Shown piece by piece: positions 23,128 through 41,260 of a stretch of 43,251 nucleotides of DNA. Position numbers and translations under genes: made by a program. The DNA lies in the NCBI GenBank assembly GCA_964385885.1, contig CAYLRT010000010.1:1-43251 (forward strand), given 5' to 3'. Origin of the DNA: an uncultured Anaerolineales bacterium. Its GTDB lineage: Bacteria; Chloroflexota; Anaerolineae; B4-G1; SLSP01. Every line of letters begins with the position of its first letter. Position 1 is the stretch's first letter. The notes beneath the pieces were generated by a model. That model was not told the DNA's origin. It saw only the letters and a program-made list of their open reading frames with translations, and ran no database searches.

Positions 23128-24801
23128 CTATTTCCTCGAACGCCAAATGGAGAAGATGAGCCATAGGCCCAACAGGCTGGCAGCAGCGAATCCGGCGATG
23201 ACCAGCGTCGTCGCCAGCCCCCACGGTTGGGCCAGGTTGAAGGCCGGGATGAGCAGGGCCAGCCCGACGATCAATGCAGCCAGCAACACGCTGATCGAGA
23301 TGCGGTTTGCCAGGCCGTCCAGTCGAGCCAGCGCCTGTTCCAGTCCTTTGGGACGGATCGCGACCTCCAGCTCTCCCTGCTCCGCGCGGGTCAGGAGCTG
23401 CGAGCCGACGCGCGGAATAAGGCCAAGCAGTTCCGCCCATTCGCCGACCCCCTTGACCATGGACGGGCCCCACGAGCGTGGAGAGGCCATTTGCCATATG
23501 AACCGCCGCACGTAGGGTTCGGAGACGGCGAATATATCGAAGTCGGGAGCCAGTCTCAGCCCCACGCCCTCCATCATCGCCAGCGTTTTGCCCAGCAGCC
23601 AGTACTCAGAGGGCAAGTGCAGGTGATGGCGGAAGGCGATGGGCATCACCTCTTCCACCACCTCCCGGGCACGGATCTCCCTCAGCGGGAGCCCGTGGTA
23701 CTTGCGCAGCAGCTGGGCGATATCACGCTGCAGCCCAGCCCGGTCCACCCGGCCGGTGGCGGTCCCCATCCGAAGCAACTGCTCCACGATGCCTTCCTCC
23801 TCCAGTCGTACAGAGACGATGTACAGGCGGATTAGGTCGGTTCGTTGGTGCTGGCTCAGATAGCCCACCATCCCAAAATCCATCGCGCCGATGACATGAC
23901 CTGGCATAATCACAAGGTTGCCTGGATGGGGGTCGCCGTGGAAGAAACCGTCCTCTAGCACTTCCTTGATGATGATGCGGGCCGCGTGAAGAGCGACCCG
24001 ATTGCGATCGTATCCCGCCGCGTCCAGCGCCTCGATATCGTCGATCTTGATCCCACGGATGCGCTCCAAGACCAGCACTCGGCGGGTCGTGTAGTTCCAA
24101 TAGACCTTGGGGATGTAGAGATGTTGCTCACCGACGAAGTTGGTTCGGAAGCGATCAGCATTCCGTCCTTCTCGGTAGAAGTCGAGTTCAGCCCGCAGCG
24201 TGCTGGCAAAGTCCTGGGCAATCTCTGGCAGATCGTAGATTTCTCCCAGCGATGTGTGGTCCTGCAGCAGCCGGGCCAGCTCGAATAGGATCTCCAAGTC
24301 GGTCTCGATGGTCGTCTGGATGTTCGGTCGCTGTACTTTGACGACGACCTCTGCGCCGTCGTGGAGGGTGGCCGTGTGCACCTGGGAGAGGGAGGCAGCA
24401 GCGATAGGGACGGTATCGAAGGCAGCGAACAGTTCCTCCGGCGGTGCTCCCAGCTCCGCCTTGATCTGTGCCCGGATCGGCTCCCACGGTTCCGGAGGAA
24501 CGGTGTCCTGTAGTTTGGCGAGTTCGGCGATGTAGGCAGGTGGAATCAAATCGGGTCGGGTGCTGAGGATCTGCCCCAACTTGATGAAGGTGGGGCCCAA
24601 CTCCTCCAGCGCCAGACGCAATCGTTGGGGTGCCCCCAAGGGAGTGCGGCGCCAGCGTCGCAGCAGCCTACGCGGTAGCGCCGAGTACGGCTGCGCTGCC
24701 AAGAGGTCCACAAGTTGCCCAAAACCGTTGCGCCCCAAGACCTCCACGATCTCACGATAGCGCCGAAGATGGCGGGCATTACGGGCCGGCGACCAGGCCA
24801 T
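23128..24801 (-). CDS. ABC1/UbiB-family atypical kinase (paralogue 2), with two C-terminal TM helices
   Basis: Contains LEELGPTFIKLGQILSTRPD, ASLSQVH, VVKVQRP and FHGDPHPGN. It is collinear with the 16324-17988 protein. GAGGTGA lies upstream. Confidence 0.9.
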   Translation of the reverse strand: MAWSPARNARHLRRYREIVEVLGRNGFGQLVDLLAAQPYSALPRRLLRRWRRTPLGAPQRLRLALEELGPTFIKLGQILSTRPDLIPPAYIAELAKLQDTVPPEPWEPIRAQIKAELGAPPEELFAAFDTVPIAAASLSQVHTATLHDGAEVVVKVQRPNIQTTIETDLEILFELARLLQDHTSLGEIYDLPEIAQDFASTLRAELDFYREGRNADRFRTNFVGEQHLYIPKVYWNYTTRRVLVLERIRGIKIDDIEALDAAGYDRNRVALHAARIIIKEVLEDGFFHGDPHPGNLVIMPGHVIGAMDFGMVGYLSQHQRTDLIRLYIVSVRLEEEGIVEQLLRMGTATGRVDRAGLQRDIAQLLRKYHGLPLREIRAREVVEEVMPIAFRHHLHLPSEYWLLGKTLAMMEGVGLRLAPDFDIFAVSEPYVRRFIWQMASPRSWGPSMVKGVGEWAELLGLIPRVGSQLLTRAEQGELEVAIRPKGLEQALARLDGLANRISISVLLAALIVGLALLIPAFNLAQPWGLATTLVIAGFAAASLLGLWLIFSIWRSRK

Positions 24802-24854: not shown

Positions 24855-25469
24855 TTACAAACCGAATCCCACGCTGTAGAACAAGAGCGAGAGTAGGGCA
24901 CCGACTGCCACCTGGGCCAGCGTATGCCGGCCGCGCTCCACCTGCGCCCAGCCGACCAAGGGTAGGAGGCCCAGCAACGGCCAGGTTTCCATGCCGTAGA
25001 GAATGAGCCCCACTGCTGCCAGTGCTCCGGCGGTCGCGCCATGGAAACTGATCTGCCAGAAGGGTGTAATGGCCGTCATCAAGGCAGCCTGCACCATCTG
25101 TACCCAGGCCAGCCGACGCAACAGGAATGGGGCATGAATATGCTGGTACAACGCTGCTGTAAGACCGACAAAGCCCAGTGACACCAACAACGGTTTCAGT
25201 CTCTCTCGTCGGCAAGCGTGTTCCAGGTCGACCGCCCATCCCCATCGGCCTAGCAGGATCAGCAAGGTCATCGGGCACACATCGGCCAGCAGCAGGTACG
25301 GGCCTCCCCACAGGAAAGCTTCCCTCCAGGATGTGGTGGCGCGCCAGGCCACACTGAGCACCAACGGGATTGCGATGAGACCGGGGTTGGTAAGGTGGGA
25401 AACGCAGCGGGCGATGAGTTGCCCGTCCACCGCAGCCCGACGGATCCTTGTGGATACGTGCTCAGTCAT
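24855..25469 (-). CDS. Divergent PAP2-like integral membrane protein (lipid phosphate phosphatase superfamily)
   Basis: Multi-TM protein. SFHGATA resembles the PSGH motif, and VERGRHTLAQVAVG resembles SRxxxxxHxxxD but carries Q in place of D. The first motif (KxxxxxxRP) is not recognisable. ATG 25469 overlaps the patatin stop by 8 nt. Confidence 0.55.
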   Translation of the reverse strand: MTEHVSTRIRRAAVDGQLIARCVSHLTNPGLIAIPLVLSVAWRATTSWREAFLWGGPYLLLADVCPMTLLILLGRWGWAVDLEHACRRERLKPLLVSLGFVGLTAALYQHIHAPFLLRRLAWVQMVQAALMTAITPFWQISFHGATAGALAAVGLILYGMETWPLLGLLPLVGWAQVERGRHTLAQVAVGALLSLLFYSVGFGL

Positions 25470-26331
25470 CCTTTGCCTCCTGCAGCAGATCTCGAACGCA
25501 TGGCAACACTTCCCGCGCCGCCTGCTGCCCTGCAGCAATGATCTCAGCAGCATGATGGAATCCGGTCAGCACCGTCACGTCTTGCGGAATACGGGGGAGG
25601 ATGACAACCTCCGGGCGCGCCAGGACCATCCGATGGCGCTGGATCTCTCCCATCATCACCGCCAGCGTGCGGTATAGTACTTCAAAGGTTCCCACCAGCC
25701 CCTTGGGAAGATAGCGGTGACGTCTCAATGTCTGGATCAGTAGAGAGGCCATGCGACCGCTCGCCGTGACGTCGACAGCGATAACCAAGTCCGCTCCCAT
25801 TTGCCGTACTACGTCGGCAGGCAGGTTGTTTAGCACACCTCCGTCCACTAGCGTCTGCTCCCCTCGTTCTACCGGGGCCAGGAAACCGGGCAATGCGATG
25901 GTCGCCCGCACCGCGTCCACCACCTGGCCGTCGCGCAGGACCACCTCCCGGCCACTGTTGAGGTCCACGGCAACCAGCGCCAACGGTACGCGGAGGTCAT
26001 CAAAGGTACGCTCACCCAGGTGGCCTCTCAAGTAGTCTTTTACCTTCTCGCCCTCGAAAAGGGCTCGATGGGAAAGTGGTGGCTCGGCCAGGGCCAGGAG
26101 ATGGCGCCGGCTGCCCATACGCTGAGCTTCCTGTTCCATAAAACCAGGGCTCAGCCCGGCGGCATACAGTGCGGCAATGAGGCCACCCATGCTCGTGCCG
26201 GCCAGGCAGTGAATCGGGACGCCCTCCTGCTCCAGGACCTTCAACACGCCGATGTGCGCCAGTCCCCGGGCACCACCGCCGCTAAGCGCCAGTCCAATCC
26301 TGCGAGTCGATACCCTCAGCAGTGTATCCAT
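25462..26331 (-). CDS. Patatin-like phospholipase
   Basis: Contains the oxyanion motif GLALSGGGARG, the nucleophile elbow GTSMGG, and the catalytic Asp motif VDGGVLNNLP. Confidence 0.9.
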   Translation of the reverse strand: MDTLLRVSTRRIGLALSGGGARGLAHIGVLKVLEQEGVPIHCLAGTSMGGLIAALYAAGLSPGFMEQEAQRMGSRRHLLALAEPPLSHRALFEGEKVKDYLRGHLGERTFDDLRVPLALVAVDLNSGREVVLRDGQVVDAVRATIALPGFLAPVERGEQTLVDGGVLNNLPADVVRQMGADLVIAVDVTASGRMASLLIQTLRRHRYLPKGLVGTFEVLYRTLAVMMGEIQRHRMVLARPEVVILPRIPQDVTVLTGFHHAAEIIAAGQQAAREVLPCVRDLLQEAKDD

Positions 26332-26335
26332 TGTC

Positions 26336-27061
26336 TCACTCCGGGGTGCTTCCCTCGTCTGTGACCGCTTCGCGCCTCCTGTACTGCCGCCAGAACCGGA
26401 TGGCTTCCTGGAGATGTTCCTCGTCGAAGTCGGGCCAGCAGGTTGGCGTACTCCAGAACACCGCGCCTGCGGTCTGCCAGAGCAGGAAATTGCTCAGCCG
26501 TTGCTCTCCGCCAGTGCGTATCACCAGGTCTGGATCCGGCATCCCTGCAGTATACAGAAAACGCTCGAGGACCGTTCCGGTCACTCCTTCTGGATCGACC
26601 TCTCCCTGTTGCACTGCGCGCGCGAGGGAGCGAACAGCGTCAGTGATCTCCGATCGCCCCCCGTAGTTGATCGCCAGGTTGAGAACCATCCGCTCACCAT
26701 CCTGCGTCGCACGCATCGCTTGCTCCAACGCGTTCCGTACTTCGAGAGGCAGATCCTCACGCCGACCAATAACGTTCAACCGCACGGCGTTTCGGCGCAA
26801 CTCAGGCACCTCCCTTTCAGCGTACTCGCGGCACAGCCGCATTAGGAAGTCCACCTCGTTGCGCGGGCGTTTCCAGTTGTCAACAGAGAAGGTATAAAGG
26901 GTAAGCACGCGAACGCCCAGTTGCCTGCACATCCGAACCACGTGGCGTGCGGCCTGTACACCGGCGGCATGGCCAGCGGTGCGGGGCAGCCCCCGCGCCT
27001 GCGCCCAGCGTCCGTTGCCGTCCATGATCATAGCGACATGGTCGGGTACTTCAGAATCCAT
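26336..27061 (-). CDS. Isoprenyl transferase (cis-prenyltransferase, UppS paralogue)
   Basis: Contains HVAMIMDGNGRWA, LYTFSVDNWKRP and IRTGGEQRLSNFLLWQ. The start is ATG 27061. The 366-aa track ORF has a spurious N-terminal extension. Confidence 0.87.
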   Translation of the reverse strand: MDSEVPDHVAMIMDGNGRWAQARGLPRTAGHAAGVQAARHVVRMCRQLGVRVLTLYTFSVDNWKRPRNEVDFLMRLCREYAEREVPELRRNAVRLNVIGRREDLPLEVRNALEQAMRATQDGERMVLNLAINYGGRSEITDAVRSLARAVQQGEVDPEGVTGTVLERFLYTAGMPDPDLVIRTGGEQRLSNFLLWQTAGAVFWSTPTCWPDFDEEHLQEAIRFWRQYRRREAVTDEGSTPE

Positions 27062-28148: not shown

Positions 28149-28469
28149 TCAGTCTGCTTGCTTGGTCGTCCTCTTCCTGCCTGCCAGTTCCTCAACCCGG
28201 GCTGCCAGCTCGTCTATTTTGCGGTTCAATTCCTCGATATCCTGGCGAGACACCGGGATCATACGGTCGAGTTCCTGACGCATAAGCTTGCGCAGTTCCT
28301 CCTGCTCCTCCTCACCGCGCGCCACCAGACGATCGACCACGCTCGGGGCCTCTTCCGGCCTGACCTCTCCTTCCTCGACCAGTCTATCTACGAACCGGGT
28401 CACCTTATCGCGTGTCAGGTTGAACACACCGAGACCCAGCAGCATGCTTCTTTCTATCCACTTACCCAT
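28149..28469 (-). CDS. Phasin-family / PHA-granule-associated-like coiled-coil protein
   Basis: Contains LLGLGVFNLTRDKVTRFVDRLVEEGEV and a C-terminal heptad region (DIEELNRKIDELAARVEELA). GGAGGTG lies upstream. Confidence 0.65.
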   Translation of the reverse strand: MGKWIERSMLLGLGVFNLTRDKVTRFVDRLVEEGEVRPEEAPSVVDRLVARGEEEQEELRKLMRQELDRMIPVSRQDIEELNRKIDELAARVEELAGRKRTTKQAD

Positions 28470-28545: not shown

Positions 28546-29817
28546 TCACCTCCCTTCTTCCACGGGGTAGGATACTCCCTTACCCCACGCATCTCGGGCA
28601 CTTGCCATCCAGACGCCAAGAACGACTAAGGCCAGCAGTGAGAAGACCCACCGGAAGCCAAGCAAGTCCGCCAGGCCACCCATCAGAGGTAGGGGCAATG
28701 TGGAGACGGTGCTGCTCAGCAACAACTGAGTGGAGATCACCCGCCCGCGCATCTCGTCCGGCGAGCGCTCCTGCACCACCGTCCGGGCTGGGATGATGAT
28801 CAGCGCGAACGAGGTCCCCAGCCCCAGCGAAAGTAGCAGGAATAGCAGGATGTATGGGCCCTCCAGGGCTCGGAGGGCAGGCAGCAGCGCCAGCCCCCCG
28901 CCCAGGAGCAGCAGGCCGATACTGACCCATACCTCCTCCTTCAGACGGCGTCCACTCCATCCGATCAGCCACACACCGAGACCGAAGCCCAGGCCGCCGG
29001 GCACCGCCAGGTAGGCGACGTGATCCACCCGGACACCCCAGACACGGGCTGCCAGCCCAGGCACGAGCGTCGTCAGCGCGAGGGAGAGAGCGGACGCGAG
29101 CACAAGGCAGCCAATGGCGCAGCGTACCGGTGGGCTGTCGGCCACAAACCGCCACCCCGTCCGCAGGTCGTCGCAGAACGACCCCCACGTGCGGGACACT
29201 CCTGGATCGCTCCTCTCGCTCAGCCGGGCTGGCAGGCGTGCACACATCCAGGCGGATATCCCGAAGAGAGGAATGGCTCCCAGCCCGGCTGCCGGTACAC
29301 CGCCCAGGTGCAGCAGCAGCGGGGCGACGACCAGGGTTCCGACCCCCATAGCCCCCAGGCTCGCCACCTGGAAGATCGAATTGGCTGCCAGAAGCCGCTC
29401 CGACGGCACGAGATGGGGGAAGATGGCCCCTTCCGCCGAGGTGGTGAACTGAGATGTGGCTGAAAGGAGGAAGTTGCCGGCGTACACCGCGCTCAAGAGC
29501 AACGAGACGCTGTCCAGCCAGTGTGTGGCAGCCGCGAAACCGGCGGCGATGAGCAGGCGCAGCAAGTTGCTGACCACCAGGACACGGCGTCGATCGTACC
29601 GGTCCACTACCACCCCGGCCAACATCCCGAACACAACGCCCGGGAGGGTAGAAGAAAAGATCATCAATCCCATCTGAGCGCTGGAGTGTGTCCTTTCCTC
29701 GACCAACGTCATCGAGGCAAGGTACACGGCATAGGTCGCCGTCAGCGCTGTGAACTGAGCCACGCTGATGCGGCGCAGGAGCATGTTCCTGGCAATGGAG
29801 AGAGTGCGGCTGTCCAT
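28546..29817 (-). CDS. MFS transporter
   Basis: Roughly 12 predicted TM helices, with the motif GMLAGVVVDRYDRRRVL after TM2. ATG 29817 lies behind GGAGG. Confidence 0.85.
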   Translation of the reverse strand: MDSRTLSIARNMLLRRISVAQFTALTATYAVYLASMTLVEERTHSSAQMGLMIFSSTLPGVVFGMLAGVVVDRYDRRRVLVVSNLLRLLIAAGFAAATHWLDSVSLLLSAVYAGNFLLSATSQFTTSAEGAIFPHLVPSERLLAANSIFQVASLGAMGVGTLVVAPLLLHLGGVPAAGLGAIPLFGISAWMCARLPARLSERSDPGVSRTWGSFCDDLRTGWRFVADSPPVRCAIGCLVLASALSLALTTLVPGLAARVWGVRVDHVAYLAVPGGLGFGLGVWLIGWSGRRLKEEVWVSIGLLLLGGGLALLPALRALEGPYILLFLLLSLGLGTSFALIIIPARTVVQERSPDEMRGRVISTQLLLSSTVSTLPLPLMGGLADLLGFRWVFSLLALVVLGVWMASARDAWGKGVSYPVEEGR

Positions 29818-29880
29818 CCTCAGACCTCCACGCCTGTGTGGGTCCAAGGGATGGCAAGCTCTTGCGCCAATGCGTTTGGG

Positions 29881-31368
29881 TCAGGGCGTTTCTTGGCCAT
29901 TGCCCCCCAGGTATTCCTGTCTCCAGATGGGATCCAACATCCGCGCAAGCGCCTCATCGTATGCGGTCATTCCCCTGCGGTAGACGGGGTCCATCATCGC
30001 CTGCAACGCGGCCTTGTCCTCCGGGTCTGGCTCGGTTGTCTCCAGGATGCGCCGAAAATCGGCGTGATGGTCGCGGATGATACAGGGCATTAGCCAGTTC
30101 CCCGTTTCCTCTGGCTTGTCTGCCGTGAAACCGTAGCCATGTTGCCACTCGCGGATGGCGCGGAAGAACGGCTCCTCCAGGACGTCATTCAACGTTCCAC
30201 CCCGCCGGTAAACCTCGTTGATGTTGACGGGTGAGTAAGGGACGAAGACACAAGGCATCACTTTCCCATTCCAGTCGATGTAGAGGTAACCACCCTGGCG
30301 CCCAGCCGAGATGCACCCATCCGAACAGGTACCCAGGTTCCAAAAGTCAGGCAGGAAGTACTTTCTTTCGCGCACCACCTGCCAGGTCCGTCGCCACATC
30401 CAGAGCCTCTGCTCCGGTGTGGGGAGCAGGTCGAGCGTGAAGCCTCGCCCGATGGGCATGTATTGGAAGATCCAACCGTAGACAGCCCCCTGCTCCTCGA
30501 AGAAGAAGTCCAAGAACTCGTCGGAGAGGATCTCCTCGCAGTTCTCACGCGTGGCGGTGAGGGAGATACCGAAGGGCACGCCGACCTGGCGCAGGTTGGC
30601 CATAGCCTTGAGGACACGCTGGAAGACGCCTTTGCCACGCCGGGCGTCGGTGCGCTCTTCCCATCCCTCTACCGAGATAGCCGGGGTCAGGTTGCCGACT
30701 TCCGCCATACGAGCGGCCATCTGCTCATCGATCAGTGTGCCGTTGGTGTACATCAGGAAGAAGGCGTCCTGATGCTCGGCCGCCGCATCCAGCACGCCCT
30801 TGCCGTGCGACTGGTAAGCCAGCGGCTCGCCGCCGGAGATGACGATGAAGCCGGCCCCCCACAACGTCTGGGCCTCGGTGATGATGCGATCAAAGACCTC
30901 CCAATCCAGTTTCTCACTGTCGTTGCCGGAACTGGCATAGCACCCCTTGCAGCGCAGGTTGCAGAGTTTGCCCGGTGAGATGGTCAGGAAGCCAGGCGGG
31001 CCATAACCTCCATGCTCCAGACGAAAGCGCTCGAGCGCGGCACTACGCTCCTCACGCAGGAAAGCGTTCACGACCAGGCCACGCAGGAGCCCGCGCACGA
31101 CGGCATCGGAGACGTGACCTCGGGCCAGCGCACGGTCGACGGAATGCACCATTGCCTGTACAATGTATGCCTTGTCCTGAGTGACGCGCGGCGGGCGACG
31201 CCCGTTGGCTTGCTGGGGTTCCTCCAGGCGCTGGCTGATGCGCCGGTCGACGTAGTTCACCAGCATACGCCGGACCGGCTCGTGGCGCACCGCGGCAGCG
31301 GTGACGTTGGCGAATGTCCTCGTCTGCCCGATAGATGCGGCCGTGTGAACGATATTTTCCAGTTTCAT
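29881..31368 (-). CDS. Radical SAM enzyme, 495 aa, with a long N-terminal extension and one auxiliary Cys cluster
   Basis: Contains CNLRCKGC (30940-30963), ISGGEPL, and C-terminal Cys residues C-x3-C...C...C (30082-30327). ATG 31368 lies 6 nt after GGGAGGTG. Confidence 0.9.
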   Translation of the reverse strand: MKLENIVHTAASIGQTRTFANVTAAAVRHEPVRRMLVNYVDRRISQRLEEPQQANGRRPPRVTQDKAYIVQAMVHSVDRALARGHVSDAVVRGLLRGLVVNAFLREERSAALERFRLEHGGYGPPGFLTISPGKLCNLRCKGCYASSGNDSEKLDWEVFDRIITEAQTLWGAGFIVISGGEPLAYQSHGKGVLDAAAEHQDAFFLMYTNGTLIDEQMAARMAEVGNLTPAISVEGWEERTDARRGKGVFQRVLKAMANLRQVGVPFGISLTATRENCEEILSDEFLDFFFEEQGAVYGWIFQYMPIGRGFTLDLLPTPEQRLWMWRRTWQVVRERKYFLPDFWNLGTCSDGCISAGRQGGYLYIDWNGKVMPCVFVPYSPVNINEVYRRGGTLNDVLEEPFFRAIREWQHGYGFTADKPEETGNWLMPCIIRDHHADFRRILETTEPDPEDKAALQAMMDPVYRRGMTAYDEALARMLDPIWRQEYLGGNGQETP

Positions 31369-31396
31369 GATTTTCACCTCCCATTTGCTCTCAGCA

Positions 31397-32137
31397 TCAT
31401 CGGATGTCCGTCATCGGCAGTAGGGGCGGACGTCGCAGCAGAAATCGGCTCGCCGCATTGGCGGCCGAACGGGCGACCACACGGTGCCATCCTTCGCCGG
31501 CACGCCGTGGTGAGGCGTAGACAACGAGGTCGCGGTCGAAGCGCACCGGCGCGATGCGGCTCACCCGCAGCGAGAGATCGGTATCTTCACCGGAGTACCA
31601 GTCCACCGGGAAGCCACCAGCCTCCCAGAACACGCTTCCACGCACGGCGAAGTTGCTCCCCCACCAGAGACTGCGCCGGACACGGTTACTGGCCCAGAGG
31701 ATCCAAGTGACTGGGTGGCGCAGCCAGAACCGTTCGATCGGCCGCCCGTCAGACCAGTAGACCGGACCGTAGACCGCCCCCAGCGTGGGGTCGGCCTGGA
31801 AGTGGGCAGCGATGCGGGCCAACCAGAATGGCGGCACGATGGTATCGGCATCAGTGGAGGCGATGACTTCCCCTCGCGCTGCCTCGAAGCCGGCCTGGCG
31901 GGCCCGGGCCACGCCCTTTCGTGGCTCGATCACTACCCGAGCCCCGCGCCGACGTGCAATCTCTGCCGTTCGATCGGTCGATCCGTTGTCCACGACGATG
32001 ATCTCGGACAGGTCGGCTGGGTACGTCTGGCGGGCCAGAGCCGCCAAACAACGGCCCAGGTACTTCTCCTCATTGTACGCCGGGATGACCACGGAGATGT
32101 TGATCTTTCCCGGGGATCCAGACACAGTTCGCTTCAT
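31397..32137 (-). CDS. GT2 glycosyltransferase (soluble, 246 aa)
   Basis: Contains ISVVIPAYNEEKYL, VVDNGSTDRT, STDADT and a GEDTDL-like motif. GGGAGGTGG lies upstream. The start forms an ATGA overlap with the DegV stop codon. Confidence 0.85.
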   Translation of the reverse strand: MKRTVSGSPGKINISVVIPAYNEEKYLGRCLAALARQTYPADLSEIIVVDNGSTDRTAEIARRRGARVVIEPRKGVARARQAGFEAARGEVIASTDADTIVPPFWLARIAAHFQADPTLGAVYGPVYWSDGRPIERFWLRHPVTWILWASNRVRRSLWWGSNFAVRGSVFWEAGGFPVDWYSGEDTDLSLRVSRIAPVRFDRDLVVYASPRRAGEGWHRVVARSAANAASRFLLRRPPLLPMTDIR

Positions 32138-33012
32138 GGCAACAAGCCACCTCCCTCTGCCGCATACAAAGCCACACCAACCGTGCCAGGACCAATGTGC
32201 GTGGCGATGGAGGGACTGAACTCGACAACGGACAACTCTCGGCAATCAAAGTGATCAGCCAGATAGTGGCGAATGCGCTGCGCTTCCCCGAGGGCCTGGG
32301 CGTGGACGATGGCGGCATGAATCGGACGCCCCTCCGCACGCTCCGCCACAATCTCCAGCATCCGCTGCTTCGCACGGCGGGCGGTACGTGCCTTCTCCAG
32401 GACGTCGATGCGCCCATCGCGGAAGTAGAGGATTGGCTTGATCTTGAGAATCGACCCTACCAAGGCAGCGGCTCCGCCGATCCGCCCGCCCTTGAATAGG
32501 TACTCCAGCGTGTCCACAACGAAAACGGTCAACAAGCGCGAGGCGAGACTTTCAATCGTTTGGGCCACCTGGGCAGCCGTCTGGCCTTCTGCGATGGCCT
32601 GCGTGGCAGCGGAGACCAGGAGCACCAGGCCACAGGACGTAATGCGCGAATCCACCACGTAGATCTGCGGCGGATCTTGCATCTCACTCAGGAGGGCCTG
32701 GCGTGCGGTGAGCGCGGAGGTGACTGTCCCGCTGATGCCCGAAGAGATGTGGATGGAAATGATGCTGTCCGCCTCCTGGCTAAGACGGCGATACAGTTGC
32801 AGAAAGTTGCCTGCTGAGGGCTGCGACGTCGTAGGGAGCGTGGGGGCCGACTCCAAAAGCCGATAGAAGATGTCCGTATCCAGGTCCACTCCGTCCCGGA
32901 ATGTCCTTTCGCCGAAGTGGACGTAAAGGGGAACGATGTGCACGCCGTGCTGCCGAGCCCACTCTGACGGCAGGTAGGCCGTGCTATCGGTGACCAGCGC
33001 GATCTTAGACAT
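32134..33012 (-). CDS. DegV-family fatty-acid-binding protein (FakB-like)
   Basis: Contains IALVTDSTAYLP, TTSQPS and the typical DegV length and layout. GAGGAG lies upstream. Confidence 0.92.
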   Translation of the reverse strand: MSKIALVTDSTAYLPSEWARQHGVHIVPLYVHFGERTFRDGVDLDTDIFYRLLESAPTLPTTSQPSAGNFLQLYRRLSQEADSIISIHISSGISGTVTSALTARQALLSEMQDPPQIYVVDSRITSCGLVLLVSAATQAIAEGQTAAQVAQTIESLASRLLTVFVVDTLEYLFKGGRIGGAAALVGSILKIKPILYFRDGRIDVLEKARTARRAKQRMLEIVAERAEGRPIHAAIVHAQALGEAQRIRHYLADHFDCRELSVVEFSPSIATHIGPGTVGVALYAAEGGGLLP

Positions 33013-33076: not shown

Positions 33077-33781
33077 TCAGGCCTCAAGGACCCGCATCAC
33101 CTCCCGGGTAAAATCGGACAATCGCCGCAAGTTCTCTGGACTCAGGCGGGAAAACAGTTGCTGATAGCGGCCCACCTGGGAGAGCAACAGGTTGACCAAC
33201 CGTCGATTGGCGCGCTCGGCGAAGGACAGGCCCACCGCTAACCCTCCCAAAGCAGCTAGCCCGGCCTCTTCTGGGAGTCCTAGAGAGCGCAATCTGTCGC
33301 TCAGGCCGAATGCGGAGGCATCCTCTCGCAACTGCTGCAGGCTGAGGATGATGGCAGTGACCATCTCTGCGGCGTACAATAGCGGTGACTGGCGTTCCGG
33401 CAGGCGGGCCAGGAGATCCTTGAGCAGCTCCTGGTAATCCCCCCCTTTCCCTGCCTCCAGGTCCTCTAGGATCCGCGCCTTGACTACCTTCCACTGTGCC
33501 AGATCACTCGCTCCGCTGGCCAGTTCAGCGAATAAGGCGCGCGCCTTAGGTGTAGGGCGGAAGACAATGCTCGAACGTCCGGCACCCCGTCCCTTTCCCC
33601 GCAGGACGTATTCGGACTGTACCAGTCCTTGCTCCTCCAGGAGCCGCAGCATGTCGTAAGCGGTGATCTTGCTGACCCCCAGTCGTTCTGCAACAGCGGT
33701 GTAATGCAGGGGCTCTCTGGCCTCCTGGTACAGGTCCAAGAATTGACTCAAGAATGCCTTCTGCCGCCCGGTCAGCTTCAT
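33077..33781 (-). CDS. Transcriptional regulator with a DtxR-like winged-HTH N-domain and an unrecognised helical C-domain without metal ligands
   Basis: LTGRQKAFLSQFLDLY...YTAVAERLGVSKITAYDMLRLLEEQGLV matches the DtxR/MntR HTH pattern. The C-terminal 150 aa contain no His or Cys. Confidence 0.7.
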   Translation of the reverse strand: MKLTGRQKAFLSQFLDLYQEAREPLHYTAVAERLGVSKITAYDMLRLLEEQGLVQSEYVLRGKGRGAGRSSIVFRPTPKARALFAELASGASDLAQWKVVKARILEDLEAGKGGDYQELLKDLLARLPERQSPLLYAAEMVTAIILSLQQLREDASAFGLSDRLRSLGLPEEAGLAALGGLAVGLSFAERANRRLVNLLLSQVGRYQQLFSRLSPENLRRLSDFTREVMRVLEA

Positions 33782-33819: not shown

Positions 33820-33848
33820 ATTATACCGTGAATTCCCCATTGTGTCAA
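33820..33848 (-). promoter_or_regulatory. Full-consensus sigma-70 promoter TTGACA-N17-TATAAT driving the wHTH-DegV-GT2-rSAM-MFS genes
   Basis: TATAAT is the complement of 33820-33825 and TTGACA is the complement of 33843-33848, with an exact 17-nt spacer. The spacer contains the near-palindrome GTGAATTCCC. Confidence 0.6.
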
Positions 33849-40325: not shown

Positions 40326-41069
40326 TTAAGAACGGTCACCAGCCTGCGTCAGCCCACCAAATCTCCGCTCCCTTTGGCTATAGGCCTGCAACGCCCGGTA
40401 GAACTCTGCCTCATCAAAATCTGGCCAATAAACTCGCGCGATATAATACTCCGCATACGCGGCCTGCCAAAGCATGAAATTGCTGATCCGAAACTCACCA
40501 CTCGTTCGAATCACCAGATCGACGTCAGGCAAGCCTGCCGTATAAAGATGAGCGTCAATGACGTCCGCAGTTACCTCCGCGGGCGGAATACGCTCCTCAA
40601 TGATCCTCCGGACCGCTCTCACGATTTCCTGACGTCCCCCATAATTGAAGGCAATATTCATGATCAACCGATCGTTGTTGCGCGTCAGTTCTACAGCGGC
40701 CTGGATCTTCGCCTTGAGGGTATCTGGAAGGGGTGCAGGATCCCCAATGTGCCTCAATTGTACACCGCTTTTGTGCAGTTCGTCAACCTCTTTGTCCAGC
40801 CCCTCGTAAAGCAACTGAAGCAATCCCTGTACCTCTTCCTCTGGACGAGACCAATTCTCGGTTGAGAAAGCGTAAAGCGTCAGGATAGGCACACCGAACT
40901 CTACAGCGGCATGCACCACACGACGCAGGTTCTCGACGCCTGCGCGATGCCCGGCGAGACGCGGCAGGCCACGCGCCTGCGCCCACCGACCATTGCCATC
41001 CATGATGACCCCGACATGCGTGGGTATATTGGACAACGGAGGATACTCGCTTAGATCTTGCTCTGCCAT
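40326..41069 (-). CDS. uppS: Undecaprenyl-diphosphate synthase (housekeeping copy)
   Basis: Contains HVGVIMDGNGRWA, LYAFSTENWSRP, IRTSGEFRISNFMLWQ and the C-terminal RERRFGG. It sits in the frr-uppS-cdsA synteny block. Confidence 0.9.
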   Translation of the reverse strand: MAEQDLSEYPPLSNIPTHVGVIMDGNGRWAQARGLPRLAGHRAGVENLRRVVHAAVEFGVPILTLYAFSTENWSRPEEEVQGLLQLLYEGLDKEVDELHKSGVQLRHIGDPAPLPDTLKAKIQAAVELTRNNDRLIMNIAFNYGGRQEIVRAVRRIIEERIPPAEVTADVIDAHLYTAGLPDVDLVIRTSGEFRISNFMLWQAAYAEYYIARVYWPDFDEAEFYRALQAYSQRERRFGGLTQAGDRS

Positions 41070-41260
41070 TGATATAGCTACACCTGATCCCCGGAATTCT
41101 GAAGGCACTGCACGGAGATGGGAGAGACTTCATACCACGGTAAAGGGTACATCACCGATGGAAGCAAGAGAGCTCAAAACAATAGACCGCGTCCCCAAGA
41201 TGCCGCATCTACCCTCCCGCCCGCGCGGCATCGAACAAAGAGGAGAATGCCGACCTCTGC

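Follow-up and report, generated by a model that had tools for sequence, protein, structure and literature searches.

A radical SAM gene in a lipid-gene operon of an Anaerolineales bacterium as a putative Mss-type lipid synthase

The bacterial membrane-spanning lipid synthase, Mss, is represented by WP_129545148.1 of T. ethanolicus and Tmari_0825 of T. maritima (Sahonero-Canavesi et al. 2022, PMC13159169), and either gene alone, expressed anaerobically in E. coli, yields C32-C34 diacids (PMC13159169). Under a rule of E≤1e-50 and identity ≥30%, its authors assigned homologues to all Thermotogales examined, including Thermosipho africanus and T. melanesiensis, and to Dictyoglomi, Moorella, Thermosediminibacter, Thermoanaerobacter, other Clostridia, Atribacterota, Armatimonadetes, Chloroflexi and DPANN archaea (PMC13159169). 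A later survey added Woesearchaeia, Humimicrobiia, Latescibacterota, Armatimonadota (7/13 genome bins) and Chloroflexota (25/558) (PMC11868695), and Acetobacteraceae are also listed as Mss holders (PMC13023045). Two other enzymes bear on the comparison: the tetraether synthase Tes (GDGT-MAS), whose four metal centres comprise, among others, a rubredoxin-like Fe and an N-terminal [4Fe-4S] cluster held by 3 Cys and a His (PMC13459092), and Gms, the archaeal glycerol monoalkyl glycerol tetraether (GMGT) synthase, a SPASM/twitch radical S-adenosylmethionine (SAM) enzyme that cross-links lipids through C-C bonds (PMC11214058, PMC11186832). The gene studied here encodes a radical SAM protein on contig CAYLRT010000010.1 of an uncultured Anaerolineales bacterium of the Chloroflexota (assembly GCA_964385885.1); the window is the whole 43,251-nucleotide (nt) stretch that was analysed. 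Judged by its sequence and surroundings, the gene somewhat probably encodes a Mss-type radical SAM lipid synthase that joins two fatty-acid tails.

29881..31368, minus strand: radical SAM gene, 495 amino acids (aa), ATG start, stop codon 29883-29881; Pfam Radical_SAM E 1.1e-22

Full-length homology to proteins of Mss-holding lineages carries this reading. The window protein is 35% identical (E 5e-83), end to end, to a protein from a Thermoanaerobacterales genome bin (P0327), close relatives of which occur in Moorella and Carboxydothermus, and 32% identical (E 1e-70), over about 92% of the protein, to one from Thermosipho (P0227); both alignments span the N-terminal helices and all three conserved auxiliary cysteines described below. 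Both comparisons fall within the E≤1e-50, ≥30% identity rule, the two proteins serving as proxies for WP_129545148.1 and Tmari_0825. Like Mss, the window protein has a radical SAM core with a CX3CX2C motif and a SAM-binding motif. The named members of its superfamily match the published Mss-homologue taxa (PMC13159169, PMC11868695, PMC13023045), and their frequency in an even sample of Chloroflexota, in which 9/301 genomes gave a match at E≤1e-40, is about the same as the published 25/558 genome bins (PMC11868695). On the basis of this taxon matching and of homologues from related organisms, the window protein very probably belongs to the Mss-homologue superfamily. A preliminary description of the locus had proposed a lipid C-C coupling or alkylating role, with Mss among its comparators and the DegV and GT2 neighbours as lipid context. 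The comparison with Mss is borne out by the two alignments, the proposed role gains support through Mss from full-length homology and from the lipid neighbourhood, and the two neighbours prove to be part of a lipid gene set that recurs across phyla.

The superfamily is large. A word-indexed search returned more than 5000 database homologues, which puts the gene far beyond a chance frame, the top one being 99% identical; the best 120 matches, at 54-99% identity, came from Anaerolineae, Armatimonadota, Fervidibacter, Desulfobacteraceae and Acidobacteriota. A species-genome scan found at least 566 relatives, of which the best 80 were from Anaerolineae, Armatimonadota, Sumerlaeota, KSB1, Latescibacterota, Aminicenantes and Verrucomicrobiota, and an exhaustive search of 1.84 billion representatives gave 443 matches at E≤1e-30, continuous from 58% to about 35% identity. 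Members were named through a cluster look-up and two further homologue searches. They include a Firmicutes clade of proteins of about 460 aa, with relatives in Moorella, Thermanaeromonas, Desulfofundulus, Pelotomaculum, Carboxydothermus hydrogenoformans, Thermacetogenium, Desulforudis and Halothermothrix, as well as in Thermosediminibacterales, Thermoanaerobacterales, Atribacterota, Armatimonadetes, Dehalococcoidia and Acetobacteraceae; further members belong to Clostridium ihumii, Woesearchaeota, Pacearchaeota, Thermosipho (Thermotogales) and Humimicrobiaceae. The distribution is patchy and looks like the result of horizontal transfer. Among the 301 genomes of the phylum sample, a single one marked as the same class as the source gave a match. 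It holds the closest homologue found in that sample (G380:C90:16925-18310), which is 55% identical and contains an in-frame TAA; this may reflect pseudogenization or an error in the assembly.

In a quick maximum-likelihood tree of 111 sequences, midpoint-rooted for drawing only, the window clade of Anaerolineae, Armatimonadota, Fervidibacter and Acidobacteriota was supported both as a set of 10 sequences (SH-aLRT 98) and as one of 19 (SH-aLRT 95), and nested within a group of 38 (Group 1) that also contains DPANN sequences. The other group, of 73 sequences, holds the Firmicutes clade, Thermosipho, Humimicrobiaceae and Clostridium. The Woesearchaeota and Pacearchaeota proteins (P0153, P0144) share a half of the tree with the window clade and not with the Firmicutes/Thermotogales group. 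The window protein is thus like Mss in being a radical SAM enzyme, in its full-length homology of 32-35% to proteins of Mss-holding lineages and in its patchy distribution, but differs in its separate clade (Group 1, with DPANN members), in an excess length of about 30-40 aa and an extended C-terminal tail, in a lineage-specific fourth Cys and in lying within a larger operon with DegV, GT2 and MFS genes.

Open reading frame (ORF) listing gave the longest frame as 29881..31377 on the minus strand, 498 aa from a GTG. The sequence upstream of the gene is GGGAGGTGAAAATCATG, and the ribosome-binding site GGGAGGTG contains the listed GTG, with the ATG at 31368 following 6 nt after it. Since the GTG falls inside the ribosome-binding site, the ATG at 31368 is taken as the true start, in agreement with close homologues of the protein, which begin with MKLE; residue numbers nevertheless follow the 498-aa, GTG-start numbering throughout. 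The gene is single-copy in the source genome. Three more SPASM-domain proteins are encoded there (G000:C19:17169-17366, G000:C19:19412-19582 and G000:C39:18998-19171, in frames of 509, 471 and 484 aa), the contig-19 pair lying about 2 kb apart, and none of the three matched the window radical SAM protein at E≤0.001 in a search of the genome.

An AlphaFold2 (AF2) model built from 69 homologues (mean pLDDT 90.2, pTM 0.89) places six helices (residues 6-121) before the radical SAM barrel, followed by a small hairpin (364-374) with auxiliary Cys and three C-terminal helices. The parts of the protein, in order from the N-terminus, are as follows.

31003..31368, minus strand: N-terminal helical extension, residues 4-125; six helices and no RRE-like strands in the AF2 model
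30940..30963, minus strand: CX3CX2C motif CNLRCKGC, residues 139-146, with C139, C143 and C146; site of the SAM-cleaving [4Fe-4S] cluster
30823..30834, minus strand: GGEP SAM-binding motif, residues 182-185, within ISGGEPL 180-186
30067..30357, minus strand: twitch-like auxiliary-cluster domain, residues 341-437; D344-F-W346, variable C351, G354-C355-x15-G371-x4-C376, P431-C432 and D436
29884..30066, minus strand: C-terminal helical acidic/aromatic tail, residues 438-498; helices 438-448, 455-462 and 464-490 in the AF2 model

By composition the N-terminal domain (residues ~1-125) contains 18 Arg but no Cys, and its net charge is +8; it aligns with the N-termini of the Firmicutes and Thermosipho homologues; sequence analysis detected no transmembrane segment in the protein. 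C139, C143 and C146 are invariant in 69/69 family sequences and kept in 107/111 of the superfamily, and in the GGEP motif G182 and G183 are invariant and E184 and P185 conserved at ≥90%. The C-terminal tail carries a net charge of -5, with W485 and Y489 invariant within the family. Pfam matched the protein to Radical_SAM (E 1.1e-22) and Fer4_12 and gave no match to the B12-binding domain (PF02310), and SPASM was borderline: the score for the protein, 21.4 bits, fell just short of the 21.5-bit cut-off, which the 24.9 bits of the genome scan exceeded. These results agree with the preliminary description in most respects: its coordinates, 29881-31368 for 495 aa, are those given by the ribosome-binding site and the MKLE starts; the CNLRCKGC motif does lie about 135 residues in, after an Arg-rich, helix-like extension, as model, composition and motif position confirm; ISGGEPL is where it was placed; and both a B12-binding motif and the full 7-Cys SPASM pattern, the latter for want of a CX2CX5CX3C block, are absent as had been said.

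The auxiliary site required revision. The protein contains eight Cys (139, 143, 146, 280, 351, 355, 376 and 432), C280, in the core, being one that the earlier description lacked, and four of them fall in the motifs CSDGC (351-355), MPC (374-376) and MPC (430-432), together nt 30082-30327. The claim of a single 4-Cys auxiliary site holds for the window sequence and fails as a family trait: C355, C376 and C432 are invariant in 69/69 family sequences and retained in 109-110/111 superfamily sequences, whereas position 351 is Cys in 18 of the 69, a Cys at 348 replaces it in 29, neither is present in 22 and both never occur together. A 4-Cys site was accordingly rejected as a family feature, only C355/C376/C432 being conserved across family and superfamily. 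Near-invariant across the 111 superfamily sequences are CX3CX2C, GGEP, D344-F-W346, G354-C355, G371, P375-C376, P431-C432 and D436. The stretch C355-x15-G371-x4-C376 matches the SPASM/twitch signature CX9-15GX4C, and with the later C432 and a SkfB-like fold (rmsd 2.9 over 268 columns) it agrees with a twitch domain; of the seven-Cys SPASM motif CX9-15GX4C...CX2CX5CX3C...C the only conserved auxiliary Cys are C355, C376 and C432. From these patterns the protein is likely to be twitch-like, with one auxiliary cluster on three conserved Cys, and it is possible that the fourth ligand is variable or a residue other than Cys, D436 being a candidate. Met374, considered as a Tes-like fourth ligand, found no support, the position being Met in 58/69 family sequences and Glu in most of the superfamily.

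The radical SAM gene lies in a series of minus-strand genes headed by a perfect consensus promoter.

33820..33848, minus strand: sigma-70 promoter TTGACA-17-TATAAT, perfect consensus (12/12), upstream of the regulator gene
33077..33781, minus strand: helix-turn-helix (HTH) regulator, 234 aa; Pfam HTH matches
32134..33012, minus strand: DegV, a FakB-like fatty-acid-binding protein; Pfam DegV E 2.9e-86, TIGR00762 317 bits
31397..32137, minus strand: GT2 glycosyltransferase; Pfam Glycos_transf_2 E 2.9e-33, ATG start inferred from the ORF translation
28546..29847, minus strand: MFS transporter; Pfam MFS_1, weak likeness to LplT and the Aas N-terminus, PRK08633 and LplT matches below cut-off
28149..28469, minus strand: phasin-like protein, 106 aa; Pfam Phasin 29.8 bits
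27696..28109, minus strand: small conserved protein, 137 aa, no Pfam match; adjoins the phasin-like gene
26336..27061, minus strand: UppS paralogue (cis-prenyltransferase); Pfam Prenyltransf E 1.4e-81
25462..26331, minus strand: patatin-like phospholipase; Pfam Patatin E 1.4e-35
23128..24801, minus strand: ABC1/UbiB-type atypical kinase; Pfam ABC1 E 2.7e-76
40326..41108, minus strand: second UppS-family gene, the other copy in the window

After the promoter come the HTH, DegV, GT2, radical SAM and MFS genes, then the phasin-like and 137-aa genes; beyond a gap follow the UppS paralogue, the patatin, a membrane protein without a Pfam match and the ABC1 kinase. The C-terminal 170 residues of the regulator have no Pfam family. 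In the ATGA at 32134-32137 (minus strand) the stop codon of DegV overlaps the likely start codon of GT2, so that these two genes are probably translationally coupled, and the 282-aa TTG ORF listed for GT2 is probably too long. The UppS copy beside the patatin belongs to a recurrent neighbour cluster (16 loci), which suggests that it makes a specialised polyprenyl product.

Neighbourhoods were compared by calling and clustering ORFs in 86 loci and naming the clusters with Pfam. The commonest neighbour was the patatin-like phospholipase (35 loci), followed by DegV (29) and a dedicated HTH regulator (28), then a phasin-like protein (17), the UppS paralogue (16), a NadE-like PP-loop enzyme (16) and GT2 (15); the ABC1 kinase was found in 12, a MGDG-synthase-like GT28 and a MFS transporter in 10 each, a UbiA prenyltransferase and a B12 radical SAM enzyme in 6 each and a cyclopropane-fatty-acid synthase in 5. 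Next to the phasin-like gene, 7 loci have a 106-aa cluster that corresponds to the 137-aa window protein by position only. The order in Anaerolineaceae is UbiA-HTH-DegV-phasin-rSAM-UppS-patatin-GT2-GT28-GT2-ABC1-MBL-DegV, where rSAM is the radical SAM homologue, and parts of the gene set also occur on Verrucomicrobiota, Aminicenantes, KSB1 and Desulfobacterales contigs.

The set reaches the Firmicutes clade as well. Carboxydothermus hydrogenoformans has HTH-patatin-rSAM, and Moorella sp. Hama-1 (AP024620.1, 5296-13919) has acyltransferase-patatin-rSAM-HTH-phasin-UbiA beside BcrAD_BadFG and two HGD-D genes. Over its full length the window regulator is 33% identical (E 7e-36) to the Moorella regulator and 30% (E 4e-31) to that of Carboxydothermus, and the window phasin-like protein and patatin are 37% and 33% identical to those beside the Moorella homologue; the regulator may be a dedicated lipid-sensing one. 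The BcrAD_BadFG and HGD-D genes of Moorella resemble PlsA/Ger-type ether-lipid or dehydratase modules. Patatin, DegV and phasin go unmentioned in the Mss paper (PMC13159169), and a full-text literature search returned no paper linking them, so that the accessory module looks undescribed.

In Chloroflexota, Armatimonadota, Sumerlaeota and a 'Proteobacteria' bin, the gene immediately downstream of the radical SAM homologue encodes a NadE-like PP-loop enzyme (PF02540, with an insertion). In locus L001 (9496-10422) this gene and that of the radical SAM enzyme overlap by 11 nt, and it is also present in loci L007, L011, L020, L022, L027, L038, L039 and L059-L074; in some loci a B12 radical SAM gene stands between the two. 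The B12 radical SAM neighbour was seen only in other phyla. The NadE-like enzyme suggests a further step, possibly carboxylate adenylation or amidation.

A mechanism can be proposed from what was observed, namely a SAM-cleaving site, a three-Cys twitch-like site, a basic helical N-terminus, full-length superfamily homology and a lipid operon; its steps we infer from the Mss assays and from the mechanism of Tes, by analogy with which the window enzyme would probably perform the same kind of sp3-sp3 tail coupling. The basic N-terminal domain would dock the soluble enzyme peripherally on the membrane, and reductive cleavage of SAM would give a 5'-deoxyadenosyl radical that removes a hydrogen atom from an acyl chain, at its omega or omega-1 carbon. 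The substrate radical would then be parked, probably on the auxiliary cluster and perhaps on a sulfide of the three-Cys cluster; such parking on an auxiliary cluster has been proposed for Tes, whose mechanism a 2026 review postulates for Mss (PMC13459092). A second SAM would activate a second chain, and C-C bond formation would yield a membrane-spanning diacid of the diabolic-acid type. Supply or recycling of acyl chains would fall to the patatin, DegV and the weakly LplT-like MFS protein, head-group addition to the glycosyltransferases and activation of the gene set to the HTH regulator, with the phasin-like protein, the UppS paralogue and the ABC1 kinase predicted to be among the genes supplying, remodelling, decorating or regulating lipids. 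No HGD-D or DUF2229 (Ger/PlsA) gene, that is, no ether-lipid partner, was found in the 91%-complete genome, and the product is therefore expected to be ester-linked and not an ether of the branched glycerol dialkyl glycerol tetraether (brGDGT) type.

Several points weigh against Mss-type coupling of fatty-acid tails. Membership of the Mss superfamily leans on taxon matching and on the homologues of related organisms and not on WP_129545148.1 or Tmari_0825 themselves, and in the tree the window clade stands apart from the Firmicutes/Thermosipho group, with identities of only 32-42%. Moorella sp. Hama-1 has three superfamily paralogues (the other two at G002:C1:229537-230691 and 2152729-2153556) and the Thermoanaerobacterales genome bin has two; the superfamily has therefore diversified, and its members need not all share one reaction. 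With a cis-prenyltransferase and UbiA as neighbours, there is a hint that the substrates are isoprenoid and not acyl. Diabolic acids have not, to our knowledge, been reported from Anaerolineae, although no literature search was made for such a report. Mechanistic work is absent for any Mss (PMC13459092).

Some of these points also favour the best of the alternatives, which we consider unlikely: a lipid enzyme of the same superfamily with another substrate or reaction, whether polyprenyl or prenyl-glyceryl coupling (with UppS and UbiA), Gms-like bridging or action on DegV-presented fatty acids. Next to the radical SAM gene, 16 loci have the UppS paralogue and 6 have UbiA, which also stands beside the Moorella homologue; several phyla show coupling of the radical SAM gene with B12 radical SAM and NadE-like genes; and the window clade is distinct from the Firmicutes group, with three paralogues in Moorella. 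Bacterial homologues of Gms are reported to cluster with mss (PMC11214058), and Gms often pairs with a B12 radical SAM methylase, as do some relatives of the window gene. In a comparison by description only, however, two auxiliary clusters are reported in Gms and the window family has Cys for one. Throughout the superfamily, moreover, the same residues make up the catalytic and auxiliary sites, the regulator, patatin and phasin-like genes are common to the Firmicutes clade, which argues for one function, and patatin and DegV indicate acyl lipids rather than isoprenoids.

Much less probable is a peptide or protein maturase of the SPASM/twitch kind that acts in the maturation of ribosomally synthesized and post-translationally modified peptides (RiPPs), with the phasin-like 106-aa or the 137-aa protein as its substrate. 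The SPASM/twitch enzymes (SkfB 6EFN, SuiB 5V1Q, anSME 4K36, BtrN and MoaA) do give the best sequence and fold matches and share the CX9-15GX4C hairpin and, as in twitch enzymes, a likely single auxiliary cluster; the nearest solved structures and NCBIfam models are SkfB, SuiB, CteB and MftC, and small conserved genes often adjoin the radical SAM gene. The TM-score is only ~0.45, however, only three auxiliary Cys are conserved, and the helical N- and C-terminal domains are unique to the window superfamily. Pfam gave no match to a RiPP recognition element (RRE) or PqqD-like domain, the N-terminus consisting of helices only, and the best curated NCBIfam match, the maturase model MftC, scored 83 bits against a cut-off of 265; no NCBIfam model came near its cut-off for the window clade or the Firmicutes clade. 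RiPP enzymes do not usually keep 55-60% identity from phylum to phylum, the small proteins adjoin the gene in some loci but not in all, and the gene context is consistently one of lipid and not peptide genes. Given the missing RRE and this context, the peptide-maturase reading was rejected.

An enzyme of tetrapyrrole or another cofactor pathway, related to AhbD/NirJ or MftC, is more improbable still. NirJ2, AhbD and MftC are the top NCBIfam models for the window protein and the Firmicutes clade, but they score 65-106 bits where the cut-offs are 265-500; the called neighbours included no genes for haem d1, alternative haem or mycofactocin, and the auxiliary site has three Cys and not the full SPASM set.

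Tes (MJ0619, 7TOL/7TOM), which the preliminary description had named beside Mss, did not withstand the profile and fold comparison with GDGT-MAS that it had proposed. The radical SAM gene was not among the genome matches at E≤0.001 to the NCBIfam Tes model NF045702 (cut-off 450 bits), whose best match elsewhere in the genome reached 73 bits; the family profile aligned to 7TOL at E=0.1 over the radical SAM core only; and in Foldseek 7TOL and 7TOM ranked 39th-41st (TM 0.37-0.39), behind SuiB, SkfB, anSME, viperin, DesII, BlsE and MoaA, a fold match no better than to viperin or MoaA. The first Cys of the protein is residue 139, and it thus has neither the rubredoxin-like nor the N-terminal cluster domain of Tes. 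Membership of the Tes/GDGT-MAS family was therefore rejected, and a bacterial orthologue of archaeal Tes, despite a size of ~500 aa, an N-terminal extension, a C-terminal auxiliary [4Fe-4S] site with three Cys ligands and a significant if low-ranked Foldseek match to 7TOL, is scarcely credible in the light of family-level homology below detection.

Taken together, Mss-type coupling remains the favoured reading, and the window enzyme adds a distinct clade to a family known since 2022, whose members in Chloroflexota published surveys have already counted, so that the novelty is modest. A bolder proposal, which we hold to be doubtful, is that the enzyme is the core of a regulator-controlled membrane-spanning-lipid system in which this Anaerolineae clade turns DegV/patatin-delivered or prenyl substrates into a class of bolalipids new to bacteria and not plain diabolic acids; such a system may comprise the HTH regulator, patatin, DegV, the phasin-like protein with its small partner, UppS and/or UbiA, the glycosyltransferases and the ABC1 kinase.

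Membrane-spanning fatty-acid lipids are presumed to be precursors of the brGDGTs used as palaeoclimate markers, and of bacterial routes to them only that through Mss has been shown by experiment. The present findings predict that some Anaerolineae, which are abundant in anoxic sediments and are suspected sources of brGDGTs by correlation alone, make ester-linked membrane-spanning diacids. They also define for the superfamily an invariant auxiliary site of three Cys and a conserved Asp, which can be tested as a radical 'parking' cluster, and the regulator, patatin and phasin-like protein that accompany the enzyme in both Chloroflexota and Firmicutes become candidates for substrate supply and for switching the pathway.

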